From the IMG/VR virus record IMGVR_UViG_3300013126_000013: a stretch of DNA of 52,341 bases. One strand, written 5' to 3'. Position numbers and translations under genes: made by a program. Of this stretch, positions 5,284 through 45,397 are shown piece after piece. Under the pieces are notes generated by a model. The model saw only the letters and a program-made list of their open reading frames with translations, had not been told where the DNA came from and made no database searches. The DNA comes from a virus (lineage: Duplodnaviria > Heunggongvirae > Uroviricota > Caudoviricetes). Numbering within the stretch: the stretch's first letter is position 1; each line of letters starts with the position of its first letter.

Positions 5284-6159
5284 TTATCCTAGAAGCTTTG
5301 CGAGTGTTTTTGGGCCTGCTACGCCATCAGCGGTCAAGCCATTCTTTGCTTGCCATGATTTGAGCGAAGCTTCAGTGCCAATTCCGAATACACCATCAGC
5401 CTTGAGACCAAGAGCAGCTTGAAGCTTCTTCACAGTTTCACCTTGTGATCCACGCTTCACAGTAGTGGCAGGAGCAGAAGATTCTGTAACTGATGCTTTA
5501 GCAGGAGCTGGAGCAACAGAGACCTTTCCACCAAGGATCGCAAGGGCCTTTTCCCAACGTGCTTTACGATCTGCAAGACCGATGTCACCGCCGTTGATGA
5601 TTTTAGTCATCTTTACGATGTCGCCAGAATCAGCAATCGTATTGAGCTTCTTTGCATTCCAGAACCAGCATGCTGACTCGATTGCACCCTTTTCAGTTGC
5701 AACATATTCAGCTGCCTCTTCTGCTGTCATGTTAACTGTCTTACCAAAGTTAGTATAGTTTTCACGACCCGTGAGTTGCTTCAAGCCACGACCACGGAAT
5801 CTCCAGCCATCGCCTTCTTTTACGTTACCCATCTTTGAGCTACGGAACTCATCCATGTAAACATAGTTAGCAATCTTTTCTGGATTACGTGCATATTCTT
5901 TTGCATTACGCTTTGGCGCTGGCCCAAAATAACGGCCAAACACTTTAAGCAATGTTTCTTCTTTGTAGTTCAAATTCTCTTCAAGATTATTGAAGTTGTT
6001 TGATTCGTGTGCGCACTGAGCAACAAATCCTGCGATGCGATTTGGCGTATTAATTTCATACTTTGGGAAGATTTCCATCATTGCTTTGTACCATGACGAA
6101 ACATTCTTGTTTGTTGGAATCATCGCTGCTAGATGTTCTTCTTTAAATTCAAAACTCAT
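5284..6159 (-). CDS. Endolysin: GH19 lysozyme/chitinase domain plus C-terminal peptidoglycan-binding domain
   Basis: RIAGFVAQCAHES, EENLNY, DGWRFRGRGLKQLTGRENY, TKIINGG; C-terminal LQAALGLKADGVFG...QAKNGLTADGVAGPKT (PG_binding_1-type repeats). Confidence 0.93.
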   Translation of the reverse strand: MSFEFKEEHLAAMIPTNKNVSSWYKAMMEIFPKYEINTPNRIAGFVAQCAHESNNFNNLEENLNYKEETLLKVFGRYFGPAPKRNAKEYARNPEKIANYVYMDEFRSSKMGNVKEGDGWRFRGRGLKQLTGRENYTNFGKTVNMTAEEAAEYVATEKGAIESACWFWNAKKLNTIADSGDIVKMTKIINGGDIGLADRKARWEKALAILGGKVSVAPAPAKASVTESSAPATTVKRGSQGETVKKLQAALGLKADGVFGIGTEASLKSWQAKNGLTADGVAGPKTLAKLLG

Positions 6160-7132: not shown

Positions 7133-7492
7133 TTAGCTATCAGCGACTGTAGCGTCTTCAATAGCAGTGTTACCAGAAACACCATCATCACCTGCGTCAG
7201 CAGCTGATACCTTCATAGGAATCAGCGACTCAACACGACGACGAGTTGCTCCGTTTGCGTCAGTGTAAGTTGTGAAAAGATTCCAACCAGGTGCGCGAAG
7301 ACCTGCGTCACGGTTAGATTCGATCGTTGCTTCAGTAGTATCAACAAAGAACGCGTTGTTTAGATCAAACTGATCTGGAAGACCTGGATAGTCGCGTGCA
7401 GTATTTGCAGTTGGAACAATGCTCGTGTTTGCGCCATCGATTAGATACTTTGGTGCAGAAGCTGCGGTGTCGGTTTTACCCCATAGTGCCAT
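7133..7492 (-). CDS. Probable virion structural protein (MALWG family)
   Basis: MALWGKTD...GWNLFTTYTD...RRRVESL; late-promoter variant AATAAATA at 7524-7531. Confidence 0.6.
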   Translation of the reverse strand: MALWGKTDTAASAPKYLIDGANTSIVPTANTARDYPGLPDQFDLNNAFFVDTTEATIESNRDAGLRAPGWNLFTTYTDANGATRRRVESLIPMKVSAADAGDDGVSGNTAIEDATVADS

Positions 7493-7556
7493 TGTTATTC
7501 TCCTTATTATTGGCTAATGGTATTATTTATTTGATCATTAAGTTCAGTACGAGTCA

Positions 7557-7865
7557 TTACCACTTTACCTTATCGGCCCAATACGCAGCAGACATTTTGC
7601 CCTTTGCAATATTCTTTGCATGACGAGCTTTAAACGACTTACGTTTCGCTTTCATACGAGCTGACTCACCTTCTTTTGGTGCACCAGCAGTCTCTGCGCC
7701 TTGTTCACCAAAGCGAATTGTCTTTACTTGATCGCCGTCCTTGGCGACCACGATGTGACTCTTTTCTGGATGAGAAGGTGTTGCCTTTGGCTTATTGAAA
7801 CCCTGGACACCGGCTCTTACGAGGCGAGGATCTTTCTCTTCTATGAACTCTCTGAAACCCTGCAT
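7557..7865 (-). CDS. Basic small protein with a capsid-targeting-like N-terminus
   Basis: Starts MQGFREFIEE; ends KSFKARHAKNIAKGKMSAAYWADKVKW. Confidence 0.7.
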   Translation of the reverse strand: MQGFREFIEEKDPRLVRAGVQGFNKPKATPSHPEKSHIVVAKDGDQVKTIRFGEQGAETAGAPKEGESARMKAKRKSFKARHAKNIAKGKMSAAYWADKVKW

Positions 7866-7866
7866 C

Positions 7867-8457
7867 TTATCCTCCGAACTCGTGGCCAGCAACACGACGC
7901 ATCTGCTTGTTGAACTCTTGTTGTGATGGCTTTTCTTTGTAAAGCTTGATCGAGATTTCTGGGCGTTCTTTACCTTTAATACGCCAGTTATAACCCTTCT
8001 CTTTATGCTCGGCTGAAGTAGTTTTTACAACACGACGTTTGTAGCCAGCTTCCCATGATTCAGCTTCGTCAAGATCAACTTCTTCAGTCTTGTTGTACTT
8101 CAAAGCATGAGCAGCTTTCACTTCGCGATCAGCTACCTTATCCATTGCTTTACCGGCATACTTCCAACGTTTATCAGCTTTAGCTTTGTTTTTGTCTTGA
8201 AGCGCGGCTGATGCATAGTCTCTTAGCTTTTCAGTTGATACCTCGTCGATCTGCTCGACTTCTTCTTGAGCGCTTCTAATTGCTTCTTTTGAAGGATACC
8301 CTTTATCTCCAGGTTTCGCGGGTGTCTCTCCACGTTTTCTCTTCGCGTGAATGTTAGTCCATAGGCCGTTGCCTTCTGTAACTTCGGTTGAACACTCATT
8401 ACAGCAATTAGGGGTACCACAATTTGGATGTTCAAGGAATAGCTTAAATGATTTCAT
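7867..8457 (-). CDS. Modular probable head-internal protein
   Basis: Starts MKSFKLFLE; short modules separated by VTE, IDE, LDE. Confidence 0.7.
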   Translation of the reverse strand: MKSFKLFLEHPNCGTPNCCNECSTEVTEGNGLWTNIHAKRKRGETPAKPGDKGYPSKEAIRSAQEEVEQIDEVSTEKLRDYASAALQDKNKAKADKRWKYAGKAMDKVADREVKAAHALKYNKTEEVDLDEAESWEAGYKRRVVKTTSAEHKEKGYNWRIKGKERPEISIKLYKEKPSQQEFNKQMRRVAGHEFGG

Positions 8458-8762
8458 AACTTACTCTTTTCTGCTTTGTGCGCCTGAGCTGCTTCCATTG
8501 AGTCAAACTCTTTGTGGTATGAACGATCGGCGTTATGTACTGCGTATGTTGCTTTCTTTGGAAACTTGTTGTAGACTTTAGTTACGCGAAGATCTGAAGC
8601 TTCTTCGAGGCGGCGAGCTTCTTCTGCCTCCAGCATACGAACCATTTGTGTCTGACGCATGTGGTGTGCTTCGTTTACACCGCGAGATAGATTGCGCTGA
8701 CGGCGATGAAAGTTAATCGCTTCAGAGAGTTCTTTATCTAATAGTTGTGTTACTTCTGTCAT
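8454..8762 (-). CDS. Hypothetical protein
   Basis: Open frame in the same operon, ATGA-coupled to the next gene. Confidence 0.65.
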   Translation of the reverse strand: MTEVTQLLDKELSEAINFHRRQRNLSRGVNEAHHMRQTQMVRMLEAEEARRLEEASDLRVTKVYNKFPKKATYAVHNADRSYHKEFDSMEAAQAHKAEKSKL

Positions 8763-8773
8763 AATTGGTATCC

Positions 8774-9034
8774 TTATTCTGCTGAATCAAAATCTTCTTC
8801 GTCGGCCATCTCTGACTCCATATAATCAGCAGCACCTGTGATGTAGTCTGTGGCAAGAACGATGTTGGCGATCACATGGCCTGGAAGTTCATCATCATCC
8901 TCGAGAAGAGTATGCAATCTTTTTGCCGCAGCAATAATCATTCTCAACTGAGACTTGGCCATGCCGCCTTCTTGGCCGTATTCACCATCGTTCTCGTCTT
9001 TGGCTTCAGCCAGCATTTCTTTAAAGCTTTTCAT
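8774..9034 (-). CDS. Acidic small protein with a capsid-targeting-like N-terminus
   Basis: Starts MKSFKEMLAE; EGGMAKSQL...LP.HV...ATDYI...DYM. Confidence 0.7.
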   Translation of the reverse strand: MKSFKEMLAEAKDENDGEYGQEGGMAKSQLRMIIAAAKRLHTLLEDDDELPGHVIANIVLATDYITGAADYMESEMADEEDFDSAE

Positions 9035-9043
9035 GATTACCTC

Positions 9044-12000
9044 TTAGTACTTAATGACTGGATTCGGCGTTGAGAAATTCTTCTTACGCATGATGGTCTT
9101 TGCTACGATGTCGATCTCATCATTCTTTTCGTCGTACTTGATTACGACTGGCATGTTGAGGTCTGACTGAAGATCTTTTACTACAAGTTCAGCACCGGCT
9201 TTTCCCTTAAGAGGGTTGCCGTTCTTTGCATAGATCTTTTTGATCAAATCTGCAAGTTCTTTAAGCTTAATCTTTGGTGAGTTGCGATCATCATTCATAC
9301 GCTCACCAAAGTGTTTAGTGAACTCAAAGTCAATCTTGAATTTCTCGAACATACGATCGACAAACTTTTCGAAGTCTTTCATCTTTGATGCGGTGATTTC
9401 AACATCAGCTTCTTCTGACAAAGAACCTTCAACTTCCATCAGAGCTTCAAAGGCCTCGTTGATGCCATCAGTGATCTTTGGCTTCTTTGGTGTACCCTTT
9501 TCGCCGGGAGTTGCGGCTTTATAATTCTGAACAAGAGTATCTGTATTTTCAAATCCAGCGCCATATGCTTCATAGTAAGCTCTAAAGTGCTTCATCTTTT
9601 TTGCACGCTTAAGAGCTGCATCGATGTGCTTTTCGACATGATCTTCATCGCCATCGTTTGATTCTGGCGGAATCACTGGAGTAGGAATAGCCTGTTCAAA
9701 TGCTACACCTTTACGGGTGTGCTTCTTTTCGCCGGAATATTTTTTAAGTAATTTTTTCGTATCAGCAGGGTCGCCAATTGTCTCGTCTGGGGCCGCGTAT
9801 TTAAAATCAAACTCATCTACATCACCATCGAGATCTGTATCAATGTGTTTAACATTATCTTTGTACTGATGTTTGAATGGAACACCGATACCAAGGTGAT
9901 GCTTCACCGACATCTTATCTTCTTTTACGGTCTTAGCCGACGCTATCCAATCCTTAGCAGCTGGGTTTGTTGGAAGAACCTTTGCCCACGTGCTGATCTT
10001 ACGATACACGCCAGTGACTGCACCTTCGAAGTTAGATCCTTCGGAGTTGTCGATGATATACATGCGGTTGCCGAAGAAGTTCTGGAACTTACCAAGGTTC
10101 TTCTGTACACCGTTCCACATCGTCTCGACTTCTGAGTCTGGAAGCGAGCGAGCGCGCAGACGGTTACGAGTCTTTGCGGTGGCGAGGTCGGTGTTAACAA
10201 AGATCATTGCAACTTCGTAGCCAAGCTTCTTTAGTTTCTCAGCTTGCTTCTCGATCTTGTCGTAGTCTTTACCGGTTCCGTCGATTACGAGACCAAGACG
10301 ACCATTCAGTGCAAGATCTTGCTTCTTCGCCGTAAGAGCTTTTGCTTCACCACGAATCTCTTGACCCTTTGCAGAGTAGATGTCTTCTGGGGTTGCCTTA
10401 AGTCCTGCCTTTGCAAGTGCTCTTTCGAAGATATCGTCAGAGTTGATCACTTTGAATCCGAGTGCAGTCAATGCGGTCTTACCTACGATGAACGACTTAC
10501 CGGATCCTGGGCCACCTGCAAGGAATACTGCCTTGAAGATTGATGGGTCGTTAACACCTTCATCAAGTAATGTTTCAAACAAATCGTCTGCAGATTCTTT
10601 AATGCCGTGCATGTCACGGTACTTACTTGCCAACTGACGACCAGTCAGGCCAATATCGTAAGATTTTGCGATATCGAAAGCGTATGAGTTTAGGCTTGAA
10701 CGATTGCCCTTTGATTTGTAGAGTCTATCAAGTGCTTCAAGCGCTCTCTTCATTATCACTTCAGTTGGTGATGGAAAGTGCTTATCTTCCTTCAGACCTT
10801 TTGCAAGGTCTGCGTCTGCAGTTGTGCGAGTCTTACCGCCAGTGATGAACGAATTGACACGTGCATATCCCCACTGTTGCGGAGTAGTTCCTGGACGATG
10901 ACCAGTTCTCCACGCAGCAACACCACGGTCAAATACTTTCTTCAGAGTGCCGTACGAGATGCCAGACTTCTCGGCTTTTTTCTTAAGACCTTCCATTGCC
11001 TTTGCTTCGTCGAGATTAATTGAGTTATTGATATCTTCTGCAATCATAATCATTTCGAGAAGATCTGCATCATTCTCTACTTCGATTTCTTCTTGACGAA
11101 CAATATGGCGGAATGCACGGAAACGGCGATCATATTTAAGCGATCCATCTCCATTATACATCATGTGATAACGGCGAGTATGGACAGATGGCTTCGTCTT
11201 AGCAGTAGCATCTCCAGGTGCAGGCTTATATGCAGCTGGATTATCGTCGTCCATCTTTGCATGTTTATTGAAGTGAGCTTTACGCTTTGTTGCAGTCGAC
11301 TTACTTAGACCTGCATAGTAGTCTTCATCAAGGAAAGACTCGAACATCTGATCGATATCCTCTTTCTGCTGGTGCAGCGAAGCAACTCTTTGTAGTTCAG
11401 CCTTGCGTACCTTTGGAAGAAGTCGAGCAGCGATCTTCGCAATTGCGCCTTTTCTCTTCTCGACTTTTTGATCGATCATGATCTTTTCTGAAGGAGAAAG
11501 GTCTGCGTAATTCGCGCCTCGCTCACCTGCTACTCTTTTACGGATAAGTTCAATTGCTTTCTTACGTGCTCTCACTGCAAGCTTTTGATTCGAAGCAATC
11601 CGATTCTTTAATCTCTCACGAGCCGCTTCCATCTTGCGCTCGTACTTTCTCATTACGAGAGCGCGCTTTCTACGCTGGGCATATGAGAGAACATATTCGT
11701 CAAGCTCAACATCTTCTGATAGTTTCATACCAGCTCTTACCATATCGTAGATGTCTTGAGCATGTGATTGAAGCTTCTTTGGAAGGCCGGATTTAAACTT
11801 TTCTTCTTCACCCTTCGAAGCGGCATCTCTCATCTTCGATGCCGACATGCCTTCAACACCATCAGCATCAGGATCTCTTTCACCTGCAGAAACAACGGCG
11901 ATTGATTTCATCGTGTAGTCTTTACCGTTGTACTTGTTAAGAAGAGTTTCAAACTCTTGTACGCGATCTTGTCCAACCACAAGCGTAACATCATCATACT

Positions 12001-12334
12001 TCGACTGAAGTTGTTTCATGAGGTCAATGATAGTTTTTGCAGGTGAAGACTGAATGATACTGCCAAATGCTTCTTTGGCAATCATGACTTTATCAGAATA
12101 TGAAAGTGGATTCTTTTTTGCGTCTTGTGACTGGCTCAAGTAAATTTCGGCTTTGCCACCGATTTTACGAGCAACGTCTTGAACCTTTTTCACTAGCTTT
12201 TCATGACCAATCGTAGGAGGGTTCATTCTTCCCCAAGAGATAACGACTTTTCTCGATGAAGCTTCCTTAAGAACTGGATTTACTTCAATAACGTTCTTGT
12301 TAAGCTTCTCGTCCTTTTTAGACTTCTTTTCCAT
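9044..12334 (-). CDS. 1096-aa multidomain polyprotein: HIGH-family nucleotidyltransferase, basic modules (DUF5824-like), P-loop kinase, C-terminal putative RNase fold
   Basis: GRMNPPTIGH (aa 35-44); AGGPGSGKS (aa 606-614); TKHFGERM (aa 1006-1013); domain boundaries marked by LDE/LKE/VKE/LSE. Confidence 0.85.
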   Translation of the reverse strand: MEKKSKKDEKLNKNVIEVNPVLKEASSRKVVISWGRMNPPTIGHEKLVKKVQDVARKIGGKAEIYLSQSQDAKKNPLSYSDKVMIAKEAFGSIIQSSPAKTIIDLMKQLQSKYDDVTLVVGQDRVQEFETLLNKYNGKDYTMKSIAVVSAGERDPDADGVEGMSASKMRDAASKGEEEKFKSGLPKKLQSHAQDIYDMVRAGMKLSEDVELDEYVLSYAQRRKRALVMRKYERKMEAARERLKNRIASNQKLAVRARKKAIELIRKRVAGERGANYADLSPSEKIMIDQKVEKRKGAIAKIAARLLPKVRKAELQRVASLHQQKEDIDQMFESFLDEDYYAGLSKSTATKRKAHFNKHAKMDDDNPAAYKPAPGDATAKTKPSVHTRRYHMMYNGDGSLKYDRRFRAFRHIVRQEEIEVENDADLLEMIMIAEDINNSINLDEAKAMEGLKKKAEKSGISYGTLKKVFDRGVAAWRTGHRPGTTPQQWGYARVNSFITGGKTRTTADADLAKGLKEDKHFPSPTEVIMKRALEALDRLYKSKGNRSSLNSYAFDIAKSYDIGLTGRQLASKYRDMHGIKESADDLFETLLDEGVNDPSIFKAVFLAGGPGSGKSFIVGKTALTALGFKVINSDDIFERALAKAGLKATPEDIYSAKGQEIRGEAKALTAKKQDLALNGRLGLVIDGTGKDYDKIEKQAEKLKKLGYEVAMIFVNTDLATAKTRNRLRARSLPDSEVETMWNGVQKNLGKFQNFFGNRMYIIDNSEGSNFEGAVTGVYRKISTWAKVLPTNPAAKDWIASAKTVKEDKMSVKHHLGIGVPFKHQYKDNVKHIDTDLDGDVDEFDFKYAAPDETIGDPADTKKLLKKYSGEKKHTRKGVAFEQAIPTPVIPPESNDGDEDHVEKHIDAALKRAKKMKHFRAYYEAYGAGFENTDTLVQNYKAATPGEKGTPKKPKITDGINEAFEALMEVEGSLSEEADVEITASKMKDFEKFVDRMFEKFKIDFEFTKHFGERMNDDRNSPKIKLKELADLIKKIYAKNGNPLKGKAGAELVVKDLQSDLNMPVVIKYDEKNDEIDIVAKTIMRKKNFSTPNPVIKY

Positions 12335-12390
12335 AAGATTCTCCTCACATCGTGGGTTTGCCTTAGCCTGACCACAAGCTTCTATTTAAC

Positions 12391-13071
12391 CTATTTATAG
12401 TTTTGCTGAAATGAATCGATGAATTTGTAGTTTACAGCAGCCGACTTACTCCAAAGCGTCGATTCACGAAGCCAACCAATAGCTGGAGTTGGATCCATAA
12501 TTGCAAGAGGAGTAGCAGTAATTCGTTGATGCCGAATAAAATATGCGTTATCGATACACCCAAGAATACCCTTGGTTTCTATTTCTTTCACCATCGCTCT
12601 TGCAGTATTTGGAGTCAACGCATATGCATGAGCTCCTTCATGCGCGTCTAATTCTCTTACACCCTGAGGAGGACCTGCCTTTATGTGGTCATATCTTGAA
12701 GTATCTGTTAACTTATAGCCGAGTACTACGATTCTATCATCTGGTATATCAACGCTTGGATTGTGCAGCATGATTGCATCATGTTCGAGTACCACTGCTG
12801 CCTCATTACCGTCTGCGATCTTTTTCCATATTGCTGCATGACCAGCAGAACAACATTGTGGATTATTCGGTCTTGTATCGTGTTGAAATAAATGAAGAGT
12901 AGCTGTATTGATCTTAGTTTTTGACCAAGCATCATAAACGGACATGTTCGAATAACCTTCGAAATACTCCCAATCTAATCCAACTGCTTCACAGGACTTA
13001 GCACAAATCCTTGCGTACTCTCTTGATATTGGATTATCAATCGTTAAAATATAAGCTCTAGTTGGTTTCAT
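12391..13071 (-). CDS. Glycosyltransferase family 25-like
   Basis: RAYILTI...WEYFEG...CCSAGHAAIW..I......VVLEHDA...GAHAYALTP..A...ID; start taken at MKPTR. Confidence 0.75.
   Translation of the reverse strand: MKPTRAYILTIDNPISREYARICAKSCEAVGLDWEYFEGYSNMSVYDAWSKTKINTATLHLFQHDTRPNNPQCCSAGHAAIWKKIADGNEAAVVLEHDAIMLHNPSVDIPDDRIVVLGYKLTDTSRYDHIKAGPPQGVRELDAHEGAHAYALTPNTARAMVKEIETKGILGCIDNAYFIRHQRITATPLAIMDPTPAIGWLRESTLWSKSAAVNYKFIDSFQQNYK
12392..12399 (-). promoter_or_regulatory. T4-type late promoter
   Basis: Exact TATAAATA 58 nt upstream of the polyprotein start. Confidence 0.8.
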
Positions 13072-13615
13072 ATTCGATAAGGGCCATCTGCACTGGGTTA
13101 TTATGATAAGCATACTTGTATGTTTCTACAATCTTAAATCCTTCACACGTAGAAGCGTATGCGCTTGGTACACCATACATCGCAAAGTCGTCGATAAGAA
13201 TGTTTTTCAACTTCAGATGTTTAGCCATTTGTATATCATTGATTGCGCCATGTACACTGTGATCGCCATCGATGTTAATAATATCTACACCTTCTGGAAA
13301 TTGAAGAGTGCCATTCTTAAGACCTTTATAGTAATCTACAGTATTCATTTCAATATAGCTGAAACGATTTCCAAATTTTTCTTTCAGAGATTCAACCGCT
13401 ACCCGAGTATAAGGATGAGCTCCAATATCAATAGAGGTGACCTTTACATCTTCAAACATCGTCATAATGATAGCAGCCGAATGACCCGCATTTGTACCGA
13501 TTTCAAAAATATGTTGAAAGTTTGTGCGAGCTTTAACATCTTTCCAGAGATTAAGAACCTCAGTAGATGGTGTCATGTGGCCTTCAGTCGCGTGAGGCAA
13601 AAATGATAAATCCAT
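13058..13615 (-). CDS. Class I SAM-dependent methyltransferase (Methyltransf_24-like)
   Basis: IFEIGTNAGHS (motif I), VTSIDI, INIDGDHS, ILIDD. Confidence 0.8.
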   Translation of the reverse strand: MDLSFLPHATEGHMTPSTEVLNLWKDVKARTNFQHIFEIGTNAGHSAAIIMTMFEDVKVTSIDIGAHPYTRVAVESLKEKFGNRFSYIEMNTVDYYKGLKNGTLQFPEGVDIINIDGDHSVHGAINDIQMAKHLKLKNILIDDFAMYGVPSAYASTCEGFKIVETYKYAYHNNPVQMALIEYETN

Positions 13616-13629
13616 AATAACTCCTTCAT

Positions 13630-13658
13630 AAAACAAAAGGAGAGCCGAAACTCTCCTT
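13630..13658 (-). terminator. Intrinsic terminator
   Basis: AAGGAGAG-tttcgg-CTCTCCTT followed by TTGTTTT on the minus strand. Confidence 0.75.
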
Positions 13659-13684
13659 GACTCAATTCTATTTATTATAATCGA

Positions 13685-13825
13685 TCAGTACCAACGGATT
13701 TTGCGGCGATCAAGTTCTTGCATTCTGCGCTCAAGGTCGACGTGATCGTATGACTCTGCAAGATATTTGTGTGCCCAAGATTTTTCGTCTAATCGTTCGA
13801 AAAATTTAACGATTTTCTTCCACAT
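13685..13825 (-). CDS. 46-aa DUF3563-like protein
   Basis: Manual translation: MWKKIVKFFERLDEKSWAHKYLAESYDHVDLERRMQELDRRKIRWY; the YLAES.D..DLERRM..LDR pattern is recalled for DUF3563. Confidence 0.6.
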   Translation of the reverse strand: MWKKIVKFFERLDEKSWAHKYLAESYDHVDLERRMQELDRRKIRWY

Positions 13826-13880
13826 CACTTGCCACCTTTATTCTTTTCAATGGGTTTAAAATATGAATGATCTGGATCTA

Positions 13881-14111
13881 TCATTTGCGACCTGCCTTGT
13901 AAATGTTAGCAGCCATATTTGTCACATAATCTAGCGATTCATGTGGATACTCAAACTTGAGTGAGTGAGCAAGCTCTTTAATTTTTCTTTTGTCTGATTC
14001 TTCAGAAGGAAGTGCCTTTAGCATAAACTCGATTGAGCGAAGGATTCCATTTGATATTGAGATGCTTAATGGGGTAAGCATTTTAGCAGATTCATTTACT
14101 GCAGCGAACAT
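13881..14111 (-). CDS. Hypothetical protein
   Basis: ORF with GGAG upstream, on the same strand as its neighbours. Confidence 0.55.
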   Translation of the reverse strand: MFAAVNESAKMLTPLSISISNGILRSIEFMLKALPSEESDKRKIKELAHSLKFEYPHESLDYVTNMAANIYKAGRK

Positions 14112-14207
14112 TTCTTTTTCTCCGTATACTGTACCTTTGTCATACGGATATATTTATCACAAAAAGTCGACAGTTTACATTGACATTTAGGAATAGCCGG
14201 TAGTCAC

Positions 14208-15500
14208 TTAAGTAACTTCTTGCCAACTCATTGAACCAAGTACATCATCTCCAGAACCATTTGAACAACACGCTAAGGTAAATGTGAAATAAGTCCCAGT
14301 AAAACTGTTTCTCTCTAACTGGTACTTAAATAAATCACTTTGTGAAGGAATTGATCCGGTTGATTGCGAAGTCGTAGCAAAATATCCTGTATCCGTATCT
14401 TCACCGCCGCTCATTGCTGTGCCAGTGATATTATATTGAACGTTACTATCAGCTAAATCAACCCAAGTGCCAGCCGTGATTGTTGCGTCTTTTGTTAATT
14501 TATAACGATAGTTGCCGTTAGTCACCCCAAGTAATGAAAAACTTGTAGGTATTACTATACAATCTGGTGTAGTCGATTTTAATCTAATAGAGATGATTGG
14601 ATAAAATGTATTTGCGGAAGTTAGATCTCTGGCTGCATTTGTCGCTAAACCTAATGATCTAGATCTGCCACGTATCTCGTATCCACCTTCTGAAATTACT
14701 GTTGAACATACTTGTTTAAGTGTTGAATTTGATGCAGTTGCTCCAATGTTTTCTATCTCAAACCTTAATGGTAAACACGCAGTGGTAATATATGTCGTCG
14801 TGATTATGTTTGAGTGATGAAAACTGTGACAATGTACAAAAGCACCGTTTATAACAAAGCCCATTCTAACAGTGCCTAAGCCCAACCATTCTAAATCTGT
14901 GAACAAAATCTGTGCTTTAGATATATCTAAGGTAAGACCACTTGGTCCAGTACCATCAAGTTTATCAATATTCCAATCGGCCTTTTCAGCAATAGTGTTA
15001 ACGACACTACCGGTCACTGAACTACGTTCTACAAAGCGAATATTCGATCCATTTAATTCAAGGTAGTGCCCATTGTTGGTGCCATAATATCCAACACGTT
15101 GTCTTAAATTGGCCTTTGCCGCATTCATTACAAATGTTGTTAAGATCAGTAAACTTTTACCTGGCTGATAAGCAAATACTCTTTTTGATTCTCTGTATAC
15201 ATAGTCACCAGATGCTGTACCTATGCTAAGATCTACAAGTCCTTGATCAGAGTTAAACGTAGCTGTGCTACTGCCGCCAGCGGTTGCTGTTGCAAACTTG
15301 CCATTATCTGAATACCTATGAAAGCTATCGAACAATGTAAATGGATTTGAAACTCTTGCTCGGCCAAACGCATCAACTGCAACACCAGTTGGGTTCGACG
15401 AGCCAACTAGATTACCATACTGATCGGCTAACATTACTGTTTCAAACAGCGTCTTATTATCACTGGTGTACTGATGAGTATTTTTGTTAAACTGTGCCAT
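14208..15500 (-). CDS. Beta-rich probable virion structural protein
   Basis: Starts MAQFNK (TAATG overlap); DAFGRARVSNPFTLFD, YQPGKS, WLGLGTVRMGF; Thr/Ser/Gly-rich. Confidence 0.65.
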   Translation of the reverse strand: MAQFNKNTHQYTSDNKTLFETVMLADQYGNLVGSSNPTGVAVDAFGRARVSNPFTLFDSFHRYSDNGKFATATAGGSSTATFNSDQGLVDLSIGTASGDYVYRESKRVFAYQPGKSLLILTTFVMNAAKANLRQRVGYYGTNNGHYLELNGSNIRFVERSSVTGSVVNTIAEKADWNIDKLDGTGPSGLTLDISKAQILFTDLEWLGLGTVRMGFVINGAFVHCHSFHHSNIITTTYITTACLPLRFEIENIGATASNSTLKQVCSTVISEGGYEIRGRSRSLGLATNAARDLTSANTFYPIISIRLKSTTPDCIVIPTSFSLLGVTNGNYRYKLTKDATITAGTWVDLADSNVQYNITGTAMSGGEDTDTGYFATTSQSTGSIPSQSDLFKYQLERNSFTGTYFTFTLACCSNGSGDDVLGSMSWQEVT

Positions 15501-16732
15501 TAACGCTGCCATCCTTTGATAATTTCAGGCGAAAAGTTTGCACGGCTAAACTGAAGTCGATCGACTAGTTTTACTGCATTTTTGCCCATGTGATCGATTA
15601 CAACAAATCCTTCTTGCTCTGTGACTTTATAGCCATCAGCAGTTTTAAGGAACGTTCCAATCTGTTTTGCTTTATCTAGTTTTCGTACAATGAGATGCTT
15701 GGCATCAACAATGAGATTATACATATCAAAGATTTTCACAATTTCAGTTTTAGGTGTATTTGCGAAGTACTTCATGACTTCAGCACGTTTCGCTTCACCT
15801 GCGGCCTTTGCCTTATCTGTTGCTTTCTTATCGATCTCTTTCTGATAGAAGTCATGCACGTACTTCGTAAGACCATCGACAAACTGAGTTGTATTACCAA
15901 TACGTTCGCCGACTCGCACCTTTGAGTTAATATATGCTTTTACTCGAATGAGCAGATCGTCATTGTCAGAAATACCATCAAGAGAAGATCTCTTCAAGCC
16001 AGAAAAGATCTTTCCAGCTTTCGACAAGAGTTCAGTAATTTCTTTCGTTTCAGCGGCGTTGAAGTTTGCCGAACCAGAAACGTCTTTATAGGATGCATCT
16101 ACTGACCAGACCGATTTTGTTTTCTTGAGGCCGCTTGCGATCTCCTCTCCAAAACTCGCTGACATTGATTCAAAAGAGTTTCCTCTGTATGTAGTGTGCC
16201 AGACCACACCGATTCTTGAGGCAAGGATTTCACGAGCAAGTTGGCTGTTCTTCGGTATCGCGTAAACAATCGTGTTAGGATGGAAAGTAATATACGGTTC
16301 TCCATCAATATCCACTTCTCGTATATCTTCTTTCGAATATAAGAAGTCACCTTGCACCACTCCTGTAATGCCGAGCTTTGAAAGTTCTTCAAGAGCAACT
16401 TTCAGCTTAGCGTTCAAATCACCTGATGTATCTGCATCAATATCAGCTGGTGTCTTATACACCTTTGGGTCCTTATTGAAGATACCCTTCTTTGCCACAA
16501 AGAATTTACCATCGCTTGGATCAATGCCGGCAAAGACTGCAGGAGCACCATCCCACTTGATCGTTACGTTAACAGACTTTGCAGAGCTTCCTGCTAGCAT
16601 GTCACGAAGAGAACGTAGATAGTTAATAGATTGACGAACACCTTCGACGCCAGCATTTAAGATGTTATCCTCGAGATGCTCCATGTGAGTGTTCTTTGAT
16701 TCTACGAGAAACCGGTCGAATGATAGCATCAT
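15500..16732 (-). CDS. DUF6267-like protein with covalent nucleotidyltransferase (ligase-like) motifs
   Basis: KNTHMEHLED N-terminus; TIKWDG (motif I), VQGDF (III), EQEGFVV (IV), VKLVDR (V). Confidence 0.7.
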   Translation of the reverse strand: MMLSFDRFLVESKNTHMEHLEDNILNAGVEGVRQSINYLRSLRDMLAGSSAKSVNVTIKWDGAPAVFAGIDPSDGKFFVAKKGIFNKDPKVYKTPADIDADTSGDLNAKLKVALEELSKLGITGVVQGDFLYSKEDIREVDIDGEPYITFHPNTIVYAIPKNSQLAREILASRIGVVWHTTYRGNSFESMSASFGEEIASGLKKTKSVWSVDASYKDVSGSANFNAAETKEITELLSKAGKIFSGLKRSSLDGISDNDDLLIRVKAYINSKVRVGERIGNTTQFVDGLTKYVHDFYQKEIDKKATDKAKAAGEAKRAEVMKYFANTPKTEIVKIFDMYNLIVDAKHLIVRKLDKAKQIGTFLKTADGYKVTEQEGFVVIDHMGKNAVKLVDRLQFSRANFSPEIIKGWQR

Positions 16733-17334
16733 ACTTTCCTTACTGATCCGTCATGGTGAACGTGATATGCCTCGAACGATATGTCCGGATACTGCTTTGC
16801 AAGAGCCTTAAACATCGTAATGTTTGACATCGCGTCATCAAAGAAGCGTACTCTCTCGTACTCTCCCTTGCGTAGATATTTATGGAATATGAAGCGTTTG
16901 TTCTTTGCGCTCGATCCTAGACCTAAGTTACCAGCTCTTTCAACATACACCTTATCTATATCTATTCCATATCTACGGAATGTGTCAAGGAACTTTTTCT
17001 TATCGTCGAAGTCCGATCTAGCAGTCACGATAATAACTCTAGACCCAGCATTTACCGCATTGCGTATAATTGCTTTTGCCTTTTGAACCATCTTCATGAT
17101 AGGAACAGAGGTATTCTGGAAGATCTCAGCTGAAGTAAATTCACCGAAGTCGTATGACTCGCCATCCTTAAGCTTATATGTATTAAAAGCTTGGTTATCA
17201 AGAGACTGAACTACTTTTCCGTCCTTCACTACCTTAACTAAAGCCTTAGTCTGAAAAAGTGTCTCATCTATGTCAAAGATCGTTAGACCTTTACCACGAG
17301 CTTGTTCTGTTATAAACGACTTAAATGATAGCAT
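16729..17334 (-). CDS. HAD-superfamily phosphatase
   Basis: IFDIDETL (DxDxT), IVTAR, K, FFDD; starts MLSFKSFITE. Confidence 0.85.
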   Translation of the reverse strand: MLSFKSFITEQARGKGLTIFDIDETLFQTKALVKVVKDGKVVQSLDNQAFNTYKLKDGESYDFGEFTSAEIFQNTSVPIMKMVQKAKAIIRNAVNAGSRVIIVTARSDFDDKKKFLDTFRRYGIDIDKVYVERAGNLGLGSSAKNKRFIFHKYLRKGEYERVRFFDDAMSNITMFKALAKQYPDISFEAYHVHHDGSVRKV

Positions 17335-18416
17335 TATGATACAACCCTAAATTTAATGTCGTTTGGATACTCACCACCCTTTGAGTTTCGAATCTCAATA
17401 AGATATTTTTGATGAGCGTTTTCGCAATGAATGCGAGTTGATTTCGATGTGATTCCTGGATAGTCGATTCGTGTCACTTTTATGCTTTGAGATAACTCAT
17501 CGAGTTTAGCACGGTCGAGCCAGAACACTTTCCAACCACCAGGTTTTTTACGAACATAGAAGTAGTTCAAGCCCCATACTTGCTCAAAGATCTTTTGAAT
17601 TTTTGAGGAATCTACCGCAGGGGTCTTGAATTTCTTGCGAGTATCAGGATTGATATTATTTCGGATATCAAACCCGCTTTGAACTTTATTCAGATCAACT
17701 CCAAATGTACGAAGAAATTCTGCGCCTTCAGAATCTTCGACAAGATCACCCTTTGAATTGAATAAACTTTCACCGCCCGGCCACGCACTTACAGTTGCAC
17801 CGCTTATATCCTTAAGCGAGATGTACCATTTCTTTCCTGTGCTATCAGTAAGAACGATATCGCCAATAACAGCATTCAAATCTTCAAGTGGTATACCAGT
17901 CTTTCGTGTCGATCCCTTGCGCTGATTTACTTTTACAATTTCCGTATTTGCGAATGGTGGGTAAGCTTCTTCCATCTGTCTTACGAGCTTAACAAAGCTT
18001 TGTTCAGACGCGCCCATGAAAAACATATTGAGGTTTTCAACTGTTTTAGTCTCGAAGTTTTCACCTTTGTTTGCCCCGCGAGCAATGACAGCATCAACGA
18101 TTACACCCTTATAGGTAAACGTATAGCTTGGGTATTTTGAACTGTTCGGAGATATATCGTTGTATTTAGCGTCGAAGATCTTATTACCGCGTAAACCAGC
18201 TTTCAGATGAGCTACAAATGATTCAGATGTATCAACGGTCTTTACGATCAATTGCATTCTGAATTCGCGCGTAGTTTTATCTTTACCAGCCTTTCCCATC
18301 GGCAAAGCTGGCGCCACTTGATAGTTCTTGTTTTTCCCGATATTATTCAAAAGATCGGCGATCTCTTTATAAACATCAGATTTTGATTTAGCAAAGCTAG
18401 AAAAGGGCTTAACCAT
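17334..18416 (-). CDS. Putative PD-(D/E)xK-family nuclease
   Basis: KGENFE helix, then IGDIVL and YISLK (D...SxK variant of the catalytic triad). Confidence 0.55.
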   Translation of the reverse strand: MVKPFSSFAKSKSDVYKEIADLLNNIGKNKNYQVAPALPMGKAGKDKTTREFRMQLIVKTVDTSESFVAHLKAGLRGNKIFDAKYNDISPNSSKYPSYTFTYKGVIVDAVIARGANKGENFETKTVENLNMFFMGASEQSFVKLVRQMEEAYPPFANTEIVKVNQRKGSTRKTGIPLEDLNAVIGDIVLTDSTGKKWYISLKDISGATVSAWPGGESLFNSKGDLVEDSEGAEFLRTFGVDLNKVQSGFDIRNNINPDTRKKFKTPAVDSSKIQKIFEQVWGLNYFYVRKKPGGWKVFWLDRAKLDELSQSIKVTRIDYPGITSKSTRIHCENAHQKYLIEIRNSKGGEYPNDIKFRVVS

Positions 18417-18440: not shown

Positions 18441-18448
18441 TATTTATA
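18441..18448 (-). promoter_or_regulatory. T4-type late promoter
   Basis: Exact TATAAATA 25 nt upstream of the 18416 start. Confidence 0.8.
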
Positions 18449-18449
18449 A

Positions 18450-18475
18450 AACAAAGGAGGAACCTCAGTTCCTCC
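18450..18475 (-). terminator. Intrinsic terminator ending the early-gene block
   Basis: GGAGGAAC-tgag-GTTCCTCC followed by TTTGTTTT. Confidence 0.7.
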
Positions 18476-18794
18476 TCATTTGCGATACTTCAATCGCTTG
18501 TTCGCCACTCATGATAGGCACAGCATTCGACTTATGCATGGTAGCAATGCCCATAATGTAATCGCCCGTGTATACTTTAGCTTCTTTCTTTGTACCGTTA
18601 CCAGCAATACCATTCGTGAGCTGTGCGTTCTCAACAATACCTTCACGAAGATTTACGTGTTCAACGCCTTTCAGCGTCTTGCGGCCATTCACTCCAATCG
18701 AGGCAAGCCATTCGTCATGGCGTGCTTGTGCTTCGATCATCCTCTTGGTCGGTTTCCTCTTTTTTGTCTTCGAGTGTATAGTCATAAAAGCCAA
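18465..18794 (-). CDS. Conserved T4-like hypothetical
   Basis: C-terminal YTG..IMGIATMHKSNAVPI motif recalled from T4-like phages. Confidence 0.7.
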   Translation of the reverse strand: MAFMTIHSKTKKRKPTKRMIEAQARHDEWLASIGVNGRKTLKGVEHVNLREGIVENAQLTNGIAGNGTKKEAKVYTGDYIMGIATMHKSNAVPIMSGEQAIEVSQMRRN

Positions 18795-19038
18795 GGGCGA
18801 CTCCTGTGAAGAACGTACGGCTATCAGCTGGAATATAATTTATGTGAAGATAAAAGTCAATCTCTTCTTCATCGGTAAGAATCATTCCACGAGAAGGATA
18901 CGGCATAAAGCCATCCATGTCCCAGTTGATCGCATCTTGCATTGATAGGTTGTAATCACGCATCATCTCAAGAATGCGCTTATAATAGATATCAGTAGGA
19001 TCGCGGCTTTTAGTGAATGTAGCACCAAAGTAGTTCAT
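18715..19038 (-). CDS. Hypothetical protein (acidic)
   Basis: ATGA-coupled to the upstream ORF; 3' end overlaps the next gene by up to 80 nt. Confidence 0.55.
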   Translation of the reverse strand: MNYFGATFTKSRDPTDIYYKRILEMMRDYNLSMQDAINWDMDGFMPYPSRGMILTDEEEIDFYLHINYIPADSRTFFTGVALGFYDYTLEDKKEETDQEDDRSTSTP

Positions 19039-19199
19039 GCGGATGCTCGCTCGTATACAGTTTCGACAAAGGAATACGGTGCACCACTCAAGCGCATTGC
19101 GGTGAGCAGCATATTATCTACATCGAATACTTCTCGAGCAGCCTCCATGATGCGAGCTTCGGTGATAGCTTCTTCGATAAGTTCACGTACAGTTTGCAT
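19035..19199 (-). CDS. Hypothetical early protein
   Basis: MQTVRELIEEA..., with AAGGAA upstream. Confidence 0.6.
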   Translation of the reverse strand: MQTVRELIEEAITEARIMEAAREVFDVDNMLLTAMRLSGAPYSFVETVYERASA

Positions 19200-20070: not shown

Positions 20071-20078
20071 TATAAATA
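20071..20078 (+). promoter_or_regulatory. T4-type late promoter for the homing endonuclease
   Basis: Exact TATAAATA 31 nt upstream of GTG 20109. Confidence 0.75.
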
Positions 20079-20108: not shown

Positions 20109-20756
20109 GTGGTAGAGCATTCGCCATATACATATTTAGTGGGTTGGACCAAACATGATCTTTGGTACTATGGCGTGCAGTATAATTCAAAGGCTCGACC
20201 AGAGAATCTTTGGACTACATATTTTACATCTTCTAAGATAGTCAAGACCATAAGAGAAAAATATGGCGAACCTGATGTAATTGAAGTACGAAAAATCTTT
20301 AGTAATAAAGACGACGCAAGATTGTGGGAACATAAAGTCTTACGTAGAATTGGTGCAAGAAAGTCTAAACGATGGTTGAACCAAACCGACAATTTACATC
20401 ATTATCCTAGAAGTCCAAAATCACCTTGGAATAAGGGTAAAAAACTATCGGCCGAGCAAAAAGAAAAGATCCGTGATAGTCTTAAAGGTCGAACTCTGTC
20501 AGACGAACACAAAGCAAAGATGTCAGTTGCACAACAAAAACGTGACAAGTCTATATCAGATGAAACCAGACTCAAAATGAGAAATTCAAAGGTCGGAAAG
20601 AATACGACACCCGAGACAAAGGAAAAGATGAGAATTGCAAAACTTGGGATAAAGAAAGAACTAGTTAAATGCCCATACTGTGATAAAGGTGTCTCACCAC
20701 ATCTTTTTAATCGCTGGCACAACAAAAAATGCAAATTTTTTGAAGCGATTACGTAA
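20109..20756 (+). mobile_element. Free-standing Seg-like GIY-YIG homing endonuclease with NUMOD3 repeats
   Basis: YTYLVGW...WYYGV (GIY-YIG variant), YFTSS, E..WE..L, LN; repeated S.E.K.K(M/I)(R/S) NUMOD3 units; C-terminal CPYC...RWH...C; opposite strand to its neighbours. Confidence 0.85.
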
Positions 20757-20774
20757 AATCATAATAAATACTTG

Positions 20775-20900
20775 TATGGGTGCGTGTAATCACGTTAATT
20801 AACGTAGAGGCAAGTGTGATAGCATACAAAAACACAGATGGAACAGTTGGGGTCGCATCAAGAATGCCGGTGGGGTTCCGCCCAACATTCACGTATCGTG
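20775..20900 (+). ncRNA. Candidate structured non-coding RNA
   Basis: No ORF; AATAAATA late-promoter variant at 20763-20770; five manually found helices including an end-closing stem; terminator immediately downstream. Confidence 0.5.
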
Positions 20901-20906
20901 CACGGT

Positions 20907-20940
20907 GAAAAGCCGCTCAGTTTTGGGCGGCTTTTCCTTT
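20907..20940. terminator. Bidirectional intrinsic terminator
   Basis: GAAAAGCCGCTC-agtttt-GGGCGGCTTTTC, 12-bp stem with A and T tracts on the flanks, between convergent units. Confidence 0.8.
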
Positions 20941-21129
20941 TGCAGGATCATCTGGATACTTAAGAGTAAAGAACGGTGGAGTGAATCCATCGAACCCAGA
21001 TCCAAGGTTAAGCGAACGACATAGCTTGACTGCAGAATCTTTATCTACACGGCGTGCTACGATGAGTTCGGATCCTTTTTCAACGATCTCGTACGCGTTT
21101 TTGTTTTCATTTACTCGGTAACCCATCAA
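20917..21129 (-). CDS. Hypothetical protein
   Basis: Directly downstream of gp41; CRSLNLGSGFDGFTPPFF. Confidence 0.65.
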   Translation of the reverse strand: MMGYRVNENKNAYEIVEKGSELIVARRVDKDSAVKLCRSLNLGSGFDGFTPPFFTLKYPDDPAKGKAAQN

Positions 21130-22577
21130 TTAAGTCCTCCAAAATTCGGTTTCTTTTTCTTAAAGCTGCTTAGCCGCTGTGGTTCAAGCTCATAGCCTGG
21201 CTGAAAATCTGCTTCTTGCATCATCGACGAACCATCAAAGAGAGGTCGATCTCTTTGCTCGATCTGCTTAGGTCCACCAGTGATACCTTCTTGTGCAGAC
21301 TCTTCGACATCAAAGAGGCGCATCTTCGAACGGTCAATACCAACCACGAAGCGCTTAGGACTGTCAACACTACCCCAACGATTCTTTAGCTGTTTGACGA
21401 GAAGCTGTCCACGACTTTCATGATCTTCTGTTGAGATGAGAGCAAACATGAAGTCAGCAGTTGCAGGTAGACCAAACGATTCTGATGTATCTGTTAGTTC
21501 AACATCAGAGTTACCATAGCCAGAACGAGTGGTTTGTGTCGCAGTCATAACTGGAACATTGAACTCCATTGCAAGGCCACGAAGCTCTTCTGCGATCGCT
21601 TTAATCATCATATAAGAGTTCATGTTAGCGCCGTGCTTCAACCGAGCACTCATACAGATGTTCAAGTAATCGATAAAGATAACATCAGGCGCAAAGTTCT
21701 TCTTCAACTTCAATTCATTCAACAGATGACGGAAGTGGTTTGCACCAGCAGAACTCGTAGGATATTCTTTTACGATTAGTTTGCCCACTGTTCTTGCTTT
21801 TATTTTTGCGATCTTCGAGTTATAGATAGGCTTTGGCAGTAAACGAAGATCATCAAGAGTCACATCAAGAAGATTTGAATCGATGCGTTCTGCAATACGC
21901 TCTTCAGCCATTTCCATTGTAATATACAGAACGTTCTTACCAGCAGATAGAGATGCAGCAGCACAATGAGTCATGAACAAAGTCTTACCAACACCGGTGC
22001 CGGCAAGAGCAACCGATAACGATTTCTTACTCAAGCCACCCTTTGTAATCTTGTTGAAGTACTCAAGATCAAACTCGAGCTTCTCTTCTACTCGATGATA
22101 GAAGTCAAAGCGTTCATCTGCGTTCTCAAGAAAGTCGTGACCAACATTCGTATCAAAGCTTACGCCGAGTGCGGTACTCAATAGCTCTGGGATTGCTCCT
22201 TTGTCGAGATCTTTAATCTTTCCATCGAGAACAAGAATCGATTGACGAACGGCATTATAGATCGCTTTGTCTTGACAGAACTTTTCGGTGGTATTGACCA
22301 ACCAAGTCATATCAGTCTTTTCGTCGTAAGTCAGCGAATCAAGAGTTGCATTGACTTGTTTGTATCGTTCTTCGTTCAGCGAATTTGATGCATCGACTGC
22401 GATCTTAAGAGCAGCAATCGTAGGCAATCCATTATACTGGTCGATATATGATTTGATTGTAGAGTAGATAAACTTTTCGTTCTGGTCTTCGAAATATTCA
22501 TCTTTGAGAAACGGTAGAACAGTTCTTACATACCCCTCATTATGAATCATGCCTGCTAAGATTGTCTGTTCGATCAT
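21126..22577 (-). CDS. 41: Replicative helicase (T4 gp41)
   Basis: LAGTGVGKT, YITMEMAEERIAERID, IKEYPT-like VKEYPT, IFIDYLNI, TATQTTRSG, TSESFGLPATAD, QLKNR. Confidence 0.97.
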   Translation of the reverse strand: MIEQTILAGMIHNEGYVRTVLPFLKDEYFEDQNEKFIYSTIKSYIDQYNGLPTIAALKIAVDASNSLNEERYKQVNATLDSLTYDEKTDMTWLVNTTEKFCQDKAIYNAVRQSILVLDGKIKDLDKGAIPELLSTALGVSFDTNVGHDFLENADERFDFYHRVEEKLEFDLEYFNKITKGGLSKKSLSVALAGTGVGKTLFMTHCAAASLSAGKNVLYITMEMAEERIAERIDSNLLDVTLDDLRLLPKPIYNSKIAKIKARTVGKLIVKEYPTSSAGANHFRHLLNELKLKKNFAPDVIFIDYLNICMSARLKHGANMNSYMMIKAIAEELRGLAMEFNVPVMTATQTTRSGYGNSDVELTDTSESFGLPATADFMFALISTEDHESRGQLLVKQLKNRWGSVDSPKRFVVGIDRSKMRLFDVEESAQEGITGGPKQIEQRDRPLFDGSSMMQEADFQPGYELEPQRLSSFKKKKPNFGGLN

Positions 22578-45339: not shown

Positions 45340-45368
45340 TCTCCCTCCTTTTCTTGTTGTATTGACTA

Positions 45369-45397
45369 AGTATATCACGTACAAACAAAAATGTCAA
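45369..45397 (-). promoter_or_regulatory. sigma70-type promoter for 55-47-46
   Basis: TTGACA-N17-TATACT. Confidence 0.75.

Follow-up and report, generated by a model that had tools for sequence, protein, structure and literature searches.

A ten-residue leader resembling the T4 capsid targeting sequence in a putative late gene cluster of a cyanophage-type T4-like phage

The window analysed here is the whole 52,341-nt stretch of IMG/VR virus record IMGVR_UViG_3300013126_000013. It is a portion of a T4-like phage genome, and nearly all of its genes lie on the minus strand. Several genes of a cluster (7557–18416) encode otherwise unrelated proteins that begin with a common ten-residue leader. 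This decapeptide is probably a capsid targeting sequence (CTS) of the T4 type, to which we assign a probability of about 0.68. The tagged proteins are likely to be both targeted to the prohead and clipped there; delivery of active enzymes into the host, argued by analogy with T4, is an evenly balanced proposition. Capsid targeting had been proposed in an original prediction made from the DNA letters, and that reading is now well supported by the match to the critical T4 positions, the presence of a head protease and a scaffold in the window, the conservation of the leader in orthologues and the occurrence of tagged homologues in cyanophage virions.

RESULTS

The leader motif in the window

The original prediction listed six N-termini of this kind, and all six are found where it placed them on the minus strand. 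Four match the pattern M-x-x-[FY]-x-x-[FYM]-[ILV]-x-E exactly: MQGFREFIEE (start at 7865), MKSFKEMLAE (9034), MLSFDRFLVE (16729) and MLSFKSFITE (17334). Phenylalanine at position 4 with Phe or Met at position 7 is common to these four and to the gene starting at 8457. The (I/L)-x-E at positions 8–10 occurs in the four genes, and neither in the gene at 8457, which has F-L-E, nor in that at 18416. The 8457 leader (MKSFKLFLEH) has its Glu at position 9, one residue early.

When written as a degenerate DNA pattern the motif has five matches in the window, compared with an expectation of 0.42 from shuffled sequence, and not one of the 100 shuffles had as many as five. Four of the five matches are the gene starts given above, while the fifth is antisense to the protease gene. 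A chance origin of the motif is rejected on these shuffle counts. Among 77 non-overlapping open reading frames (ORFs) the motif is found only in those of the cluster, at the called start in three cases and at an internal ATG in the gene starting at 7865, because the ORF list opens that frame at GTG 7895. Ribosome-binding sites (Shine–Dalgarno sequences) and ATGA-type stop/start overlaps favour the start codons chosen, and it is for this reason that ATG 7865 is preferred over GTG 7895. The prediction also held that no replication or modification gene in the window starts with the motif, and this is so among the same 77 ORFs. A Rad50-like gene at 43718 begins MLTFTQV, with the remainder of the motif absent.

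Beyond the leader, an all-against-all BLASTP comparison of the tagged proteins gave no significant pair. Paralogy of the tagged genes is rejected given this lack of similarity outside the leader, as is a signal peptide, the leader being ten residues long and charged.

Correspondence with T4 and the head genes of the window

In the T4 record (NC_000866) the sequence MKTYQEFIAE opens both ipII and ipIII, and MKTFKEF opens ipI. Mutagenesis of the T4 CTS by Mullaney and Black, summarised in PMC9026906, showed that residues 4 and 7 are the main determinants of targeting and that residues 8 and 10 are needed for processing; with Asp at position 10, cleavage is blocked and targeting persists (PMC9026906). 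The positions constrained in the leaders of the window (4, 7, 8 and 10) are those mapped in T4.

The high-coordinate end of the window is a head module, comprising the gp21 protease, gp22 scaffold, gp23 capsid protein and tail tube. A site at L-I-E-9 has been noted in T4 gp21 itself (PMC9026906), and the start of the window protease, MALLIKDIVE, parallels it. The capsid propeptide ends in S-F-L-T-E, which is an F-L-x-E cut site. Across the six frames of the window there are four occurrences of V-[ED]-L-D-E, each in a coding frame, two of them in the cluster and two in the ORF beside the protease gene. That ORF is a candidate prohead-core protein that would be cut by the protease. The positions of these and the other features are collected in Table 1.

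Table 1. Features of the tagged cluster, the head module and associated elements in the window
Feature	Position	Strand	Remarks
Endolysin	5284–6159		adjoins tagged cluster
119-aa protein	7133–7492	−	putative homologue of cyanophage 'S-layer domain' virion protein T4-GC425 (detected in S-SM1 virions)
AATAAATA	7524–7531	−	ahead of 119-aa gene
102-aa very basic protein	7557–7865	−	CTS-type leader encoded 7836–7865; mature pI 10.4
196-aa basic protein	7867–8457	−	near-CTS leader; in a relative MKSFLKFVEH (Glu at 9 conserved)
VDLDE inside 196-aa protein	8065–8079	−	precedes C-terminal module
102-aa protein without leader	8454–8762	−	family expanded to 449 and 1019 aa in relatives
86-aa acidic protein	8774–9034	−	CTS-type leader encoded 9005–9034; mature pI 4.1
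1096-aa multi-module protein	9044–12334	−	no N-terminal CTS; tag-like sites at module borders
CTS-core FETLLDE, residues 586–592 of 1096-aa protein	10559–10579	−	just ahead of kinase domain
CTS-core FESFLDE, residues 331–337 of 1096-aa protein	11324–11344	−	
VELDE, residues 209–213 of 1096-aa protein	11696–11710	−	
Exact late promoter TATAAATA	12392–12399	−	58 nt upstream of 1096-aa gene
434-aa homologue of 'virion structural protein' family phrog_1645	14208–15512	−	leaderless
409-aa DUF6267 protein	15500–16729	−	CTS-type leader encoded 16700–16729; alternative ATG 16732
201-aa HAD-type phosphatase	16729–17334	−	CTS-type leader encoded 17305–17334
360-aa basic protein	17334–18416	−	degenerate leader MVKPFSSFAKS
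Exact late promoter TATAAATA	18441–18448	−	25 nt upstream of 360-aa gene
10-bp G+C-rich hairpin and T-run	18454–18477	−	runs straight into late promoter; terminator/late-promoter composite
gp55-type late sigma factor gene	44776–45384		
gp23-type major capsid protein	48370–49653	−	propeptide ends SFLTE before APV
gp22-type scaffold (T4_CASP)	49701–50618	−	two internal CTS-core motifs
gp21-type prohead protease (Peptidase_S77)	50685–51344	−	N-terminus has I-x-E ending at residue 10
ORF upstream of protease gene, open at window end	51603–52341	−	two VELDE copies, at 51815 and 51989

Conservation and mobility of the leader

The leader is conserved at the same positions in orthologues of the tagged proteins. 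Among 120 orthologues of the DUF6267 protein, F occupies position 4 in all but two, which have L; F or Y is found at position 7, L or I at position 8 and E at position 10, with positions 2, 3, 5, 6 and 9 variable. Orthologues of the HAD-type protein retain F4 and E10 in 104 of 104 cases, positions 7 and 8 are fixed or change conservatively, and the same five positions vary. The wider DUF6267 family was represented by 150 sequences at 50% clustering; a strict leader is present in 39 of these and near variants are numerous, whereas about 19 lack a leader altogether. Where at least ten residues precede the domain, [ILVMF]-x-E is present within the last 12 of them in 98 of 106 representatives, against 13% of control windows. 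N-terminal fusions of DUF6267 retain the site at the junction, for example as ...FTDFITE ahead of the domain.

The family of the 360-aa protein is more varied. A subset has the full ten-residue prefix (MLGFKSFMAE, MKTFREFMSE, MLTFLEYLNE and MKRFREYMVE), one prefix has Asp at position 10, other members have an IPI-like half leader such as MLTFKQFSSS, and most orthologues start directly at the domain. Judged by these comparisons the leader behaves as a movable module, apparently gained and lost on the same families in relatives.

Relatives whose DUF6267 proteins are 75–87% identical differ greatly in the content of the locus, where other genes range from 102 to 1019 aa, and the HAD gene was absent from all three of the relatives' loci examined. 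This plasticity mirrors that of the hypervariable internal-protein locus of the T-even phages, and both loci adjoin a lysozyme or endolysin gene.

Products of the tagged and neighbouring genes

The 201-aa protein contains the HAD motifs DIDET, VTAR and FFDD. It matches Pfam DUF2608 with 24.2 bits (cut-off 22.6), with Acid_phosphat_B falling under its cut-off, and phrog_415 'polynucleotide kinase', of the polynucleotide-kinase/phosphatase family, at 2.5e-10. A sequence search of the PDB with this protein returned chance rows only.

In the DUF6267 protein K58, D60 and G61 (KxDG), E373, G374 and K387 are invariant in 104 sequences of 34–94% identity, and correspond to motifs I (KxDG), IV (EG) and V (K) of the covalent nucleotidyltransferases. 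The best fold matches to its structure model (pLDDT 93.6) are RNA ligases, namely REL1 (Z 8.3, 193 residues aligned, rmsd 4.1) and Naegleria Rnl (Z 8.2), with further matches to T4 Rnl2 (Z 7.7) and Trl1 (Z 7.5); these Z values are middling by the scale of the tool. A description as ligase-like (an RNA-ligase-like nucleotidyltransferase) is reasonable because of the invariant KxDG and the RNA ligases among the best matches to the model.

The model of the 360-aa protein (pLDDT 90) falls into two parts. Residues 8–118 resemble Pol-beta-type nucleotidyltransferases (Z about 9), while residues 120–360 give a borderline fold match to HinP1I (Z 8.5, 167 residues aligned) and MspI (Z 7.7). There was no family model match to this protein, and a Foldseek search of the PDB gave no row under E 0.001 for either its model or that of DUF6267. 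On the modelled fold, nuclease function is a lead and not a finding. An NCBIfam search of eight cluster proteins gave nothing.

The enzyme cargo of the original prediction comprised a phosphatase, a ligase-like protein and a nuclease. The phosphatase is supported by the HAD motifs together with one Pfam match over its cut-off, and the ligase-like protein by KxDG and the RNA ligases among its best fold matches. The nuclease does not fare as well, having a borderline fold match and a leader that is degenerate here.

The mature tagged proteins are basic, with pI values of 9–10.4, except for the 86-aa protein (pI 4.1). For the body of the 102-aa protein encoded at 7557–7865 there is a match to a domain present in 'minor head protein and DNA pilot' proteins (phrog_220), and it provides independent support for a location inside the head. 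The homology assigned to the 119-aa protein is based on N-terminal likeness, shared annotation and position, with no alignment made. Leaderless genes for a glycosyltransferase of family 25 and a Methyltransf_24 protein lie between the two cargo blocks (12391–13615, minus strand), and in one relative two methyltransferases and two glycosyltransferases are located there.

Internal tag-like sites of the 1096-aa protein

The 1096-aa protein is built from a cytidylyltransferase/NMNAT-like module, a basic helical module, DUF5824, a P-loop kinase of the Zeta/AAA_33 type and a C-terminal module. Two of its segments correspond to separate genes of Phage C48C1 that have the leader. Residues 215–322 align with a 123-aa gene starting MLSFKQFVSE, with the VELDE at the matching border, and residues 437–511 (DUF5824) align at 60% identity with a 90-aa gene starting MITFKKYLEE. 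The ORF looks like a polyprotein, which would be cut by the head protease at its L-x-E borders. In the 196-aa protein, the module that follows VDLDE at the C-terminal end corresponds in a metagenome relative to a 76-aa gene of its own, starting MLRFSEYISE.

The motif in related genomes and in cyanophage virions

The motif was counted by pattern scans of seven related or control genomes as well as the window. The whole-genome scan of T4 returned ipII, ipIII and gene 61.1. C48C1 has five matches, of which four are in the syntenic locus, and the match in Stenotrophomonas phage DLP6 is the DUF6267 gene (AAY80_066), which starts MMKFTQFLAE. A single match was found in the 174 kb of cyanophage S-SM1, and is the cytidylyltransferase SSM1_190, which starts MKKFSAFLNE. 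Single matches in Methylophilales phage Melnitz and Pelagibacter phage HTVC008M carry little weight, because a backwards-pattern control also gives one or two in these AT-rich genomes.

Two further starts are recorded here as side observations. T4 gene 57B, which is not known as an internal protein, has the CTS-like start MMEFKDF; the intervals of the 61.1 and 57B genes in NC_000866 are 18966–19130 and 73952–74410, respectively. A 137-aa gene of HTVC008M (20762–21175) starts MKSFKDFQNVNEKTTPVNAPSE and resembles the long leader of T4 IPI, MKTFKEFTSTTTPVSTITE.

The S-SM1 cytidylyltransferase is represented by 25 peptide counts in purified particles (Sullivan et al. 2010, PMC3037559). The virions also hold the products of its neighbours T4-GC1453, 1454, 1455, 425 and 426, while no proteomic flag is given for T4-GC71, the DUF6267 homologue of S-SM1, which is leaderless (PMC3037559). 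T4-GC1455 of S-SM1 starts MLSFKELQE. A cytidylyltransferase, which starts MRFRQFIIE, was also detected in virions of S-SZBM1 (PMC9146016); the leaderless DUF6267 homologue of that phage is missing from the portion covered of the 30-protein virion table and text. NMNAT-like cytidylyltransferase has been reported in virions of S-SCSM1 and S-CREM2, with S-CBWM1 and S-SZBM1 named as earlier cases (PMC9602691, PMC10665884). Contamination of the virions was considered not excludable and further work necessary (PMC10665884). These cyanophage virion-proteome papers mention no targeting sequence and propose no route into the capsid.

The S-SZBM1 record has two small CTS-led genes (MKSFKSFLSE and MKTFKQYITE) located between terminase genes at 122311–123125. 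They adjoin the gene of a virion-detected 424-aa 'virion structural protein', annotated like the 434-aa protein of the window (no alignment made). On sequence grounds the terminase region would be a second CTS site in that genome.

Late promoters of the cluster

The T4-type late promoter TATAAATA is present in 11 exact copies in the window, compared with 1.9 expected. The prediction that exact late promoters head both operons was correct, with TATAAATA at 12392 and 18441 on the minus strand, and from these we infer that the cluster is transcribed late. The form NATAAATA is the late promoter reported for cyanophage S-PM2. Variants of it occur on the minus strand at 7524, 13669, 14151 and 16877, upstream of the genes for the 119-aa head protein, a 76-aa protein and the DUF6267 protein, and also near the hairpin before the methyltransferase gene; a second strong hairpin is located at 13637–13658. 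Because of the variants at these four sites, the tagged cluster may have more than two late starts.

The phage and its relatives

The replication and metabolism genes of the window encode a family-B DNA polymerase, UvsX, gp41 helicase, gp61 primase, clamp loader, gp46/47 and proteins of nucleotide metabolism. A megablast search of the region against 50,697 phage records found no near-identical relative. The nearest isolates by protein comparison are C48C1, DLP6, Melnitz, HTVC008M and the cyanomyoviruses, and the DNA polymerase is 52% identical to that of C48C1, the nearest of these. Because of these nearest isolates the phage is placed, by protein likeness, in the Kyanoviridae-type (cyanophage/pelagiphage-type) branch and not among the T-evens. 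Very many close relatives are found in metagenomes. One of the few plus-strand ORFs (20109–20756) has a NUMOD3 motif and is homing-endonuclease-like, with an exact TATAAATA ahead of it at 20071 on the same strand.

DISCUSSION

The leaders in the window are consistent with the following mechanism. The genes would be transcribed late from TATAAATA promoters. The tag, aromatic at position 4 and either aromatic or Met at position 7, would bind the assembling gp22 core, so that the protein becomes enclosed as the gp23 shell forms. The gp21-type protease would cut after Glu10 using the I or L at position 8, at the same F-(I/L)-x-E site as the end of the capsid propeptide, and the mature, mostly basic proteins would remain in the head beside the DNA. 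They would probably be expelled with the DNA into the next host, acting there before any phage gene is read. The cargo would comprise the HAD-type phosphatase, the RNA-ligase-like DUF6267 enzyme and three further proteins, two of them small and basic and the third acidic; this list omits the 434-aa protein, the 102-aa protein encoded at 8454–8762, and the methyltransferase and glycosyltransferase genes. Pieces of the 1096-aa protein may join the cargo, released at the tag-like L-x-E sites. For this phage we infer core binding, cleavage, retention in the head, ejection and early action, with ejection into the host argued by analogy with T4 (PMC9026906, PMC12373910).

A number of observations weigh against this mechanism. 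Within the cluster, the early Glu of the 8457 leader puts Phe and not I or L at P3, and the leader at 18416 has only the F-x-x-F spacing, shifted by one residue, with no Glu; this 360-aa gene has no better leader here, and most of its orthologues have none. The acidic 86-aa protein is unlike the T4 internal proteins. The 1096-aa protein is without an N-terminal tag, while its homologues in S-SM1, Melnitz and S-SZBM1 have one. In the cyanophages, several virion proteins of the S-SM1 cluster are untagged, so that the tag is not the sole route into the particle, and the two small genes 191 and 192 of S-SZBM1 are fully CTS-led yet lie outside the 30 reported virion proteins, as far as the portion covered of PMC9146016 extends. 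Lastly, T4 gene 61.1 starts MKTFKEFIKE and has no known head role, and for this reason the motif alone is no proof of packaging.

The tagged proteins might instead be accessories of the prohead core or scaffold, or pro-enzymes, that are cut up and expelled like T4 gp67 and gp68, with no injected payload. As an account of the whole cluster this is unlikely, but it is the main rival for some of its members. It is best fitted by the 86-aa protein, which is strongly acidic like core proteins. The scaffold itself contains CTS-core motifs, the ORF beside the protease gene shares VELDE sites with cluster proteins, and substitutes for core proteins are plausible because cyanophage-type phages have been reported without gp67 and gp68 (PMC2984593). 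However, the HAD and DUF6267 proteins appear to be folded enzymes whose catalytic motifs are invariant, and such motifs would serve no purpose in proteins destined for degradation; their bodies also contain few L/I-x-E-rich linkers. Furthermore, the tagged cytidylyltransferase persists in the mature virions of S-SM1 and S-SZBM1. The payload reading of the original prediction stands in part: capsid targeting is well supported, but the acidic tagged protein may be a component of the core and not cargo.

Explanations that dispense with the prohead are less probable. The shared start could be kept at the level of the nucleic acid, as a linker for cassette-swapping recombination or as a favourable translation-initiation region with no targeting role. 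The locus is indeed highly plastic between close relatives, with modules shifting between genes, and the gene starts are A/T-rich and tightly coupled to upstream stops. Yet this very improbable reading fits poorly, because it is the protein sequence that is conserved and because the site also persists at internal junctions. The codons for F, I/L and E differ among the four genes and the intervening residues vary freely, the hydrophobic-x-E site is retained at internal fusion junctions where no initiation occurs, and the constrained positions coincide with the T4 mutagenesis map. It is harder still to credit that the decapeptide is a tag for some other partner (a modifying enzyme, a chaperone or the membrane) and merely resembles the T4 sequence, as might be argued from the presence of the motif in T4 61.1. 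No candidate partner gene accompanies the tag in the loci compared, whereas the protease, the scaffold and the capsid cut site that fit the tag are all in the window, and tagged homologues are present in virions of related phages. Capsid targeting remains the preferred reading of the leader.

The CTS, the internal proteins and Alt are textbook T4 biology. The leaders described here are like those of the T4 internal proteins in having ten residues that begin with Met1, are aromatic at 4 and aromatic or hydrophobic at 7, and have I or L at 8 and Glu at 10. In both systems the tagged proteins are otherwise unrelated and are encoded in a hypervariable locus next to a lysozyme gene, by genes that are late in T4 and predicted to be late here, and the same phage encodes a gp22 scaffold and a protease of the gp21 family. 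The T4 internal proteins are small inhibitors of 8–20 kDa, whereas the putative cargo of the window includes enzymes of 22 and 44 kDa, and tag-like sites also occur within a 123-kDa multi-enzyme protein.

The carriage of enzymes is not new in principle, because T4 packages the ADP-ribosyltransferase Alt, which gp21 trims at each end (PMC9026906). Alt follows the same principle, as a head-carried, protease-processed and injected enzyme that acts before phage gene expression. It differs in having a 7-residue propeptide of different sequence; the window contains no Alt homologue, and cyanophage-type phages have been reported without alt (PMC2984593). The first module of the 1096-aa protein is a homologue of the cytidylyltransferase found in virions of S-SM1, S-SZBM1, S-SCSM1 and S-CREM2, and the two share their locus, with the gp41 helicase gene on one side and that of the gp61 primase on the other. 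The virion cytidylyltransferase has the same type of leader in S-SM1 and S-SZBM1, whereas the module in the window is leaderless and fused to further modules. In the giant phages SPN3US and phiKZ the ejection proteins have N-terminal propeptides that are cut after Glu by a gp21-related protease (PMC5694885), but these are 80–130 residues long with the cut motif A/S-x-E, and have no sequence likeness to the decapeptide.

It has been suggested in a review of T4 that the CTS may be a general loading route for varied proteins in T4-like phages (PMC9026906). A literature search, mostly without subscription journals, found no paper linking the CTS to cyanophage-type phages and none mentioning DUF6267 or DUF5824. 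Within the papers that could be searched, three aspects appear to be undescribed: that the cyanophage/pelagiphage-type branch has the T4-type tag, that full enzymes carry it beside a multi-enzyme protein that would be cut by the protease, and that it coincides with the 'virion-associated enzymes' for which cyanophage proteomes gave no explanation. The cyanophage papers report metabolic enzymes in virions for which contamination and packaging were not separable and no capsid route was known (PMC10665884, PMC9602691). A T4-type tag on these proteins offers a testable mechanism for the presence of such enzymes.

More speculatively, and on balance doubtfully, this abundant environmental lineage could load a kit for the repair and attack of nucleic acids, comprising a 3′-phosphatase, the RNA-ligase-like enzyme, and polynucleotide-kinase-like and NMNAT-like modules that the head protease would release from the 123-kDa protein at tag-like sites, with a restriction-type nuclease in some relatives, injected to undo tRNA- or NAD-directed host defences prior to phage transcription. 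If that were true, the ten-residue tag would make it possible to tell from the sequence by itself which proteins thousands of uncultured phages inject; DUF6267 by itself has more than 2600 cluster representatives. The tag would also serve as a sequence rule predicting which proteins environmental T4-like phages deliver to their hosts. The internal-protein principle of the T-even phages, so far one of small restriction inhibitors, would then reach complete enzymes and a polyprotein cut by the protease, in a group of phages that is very abundant.

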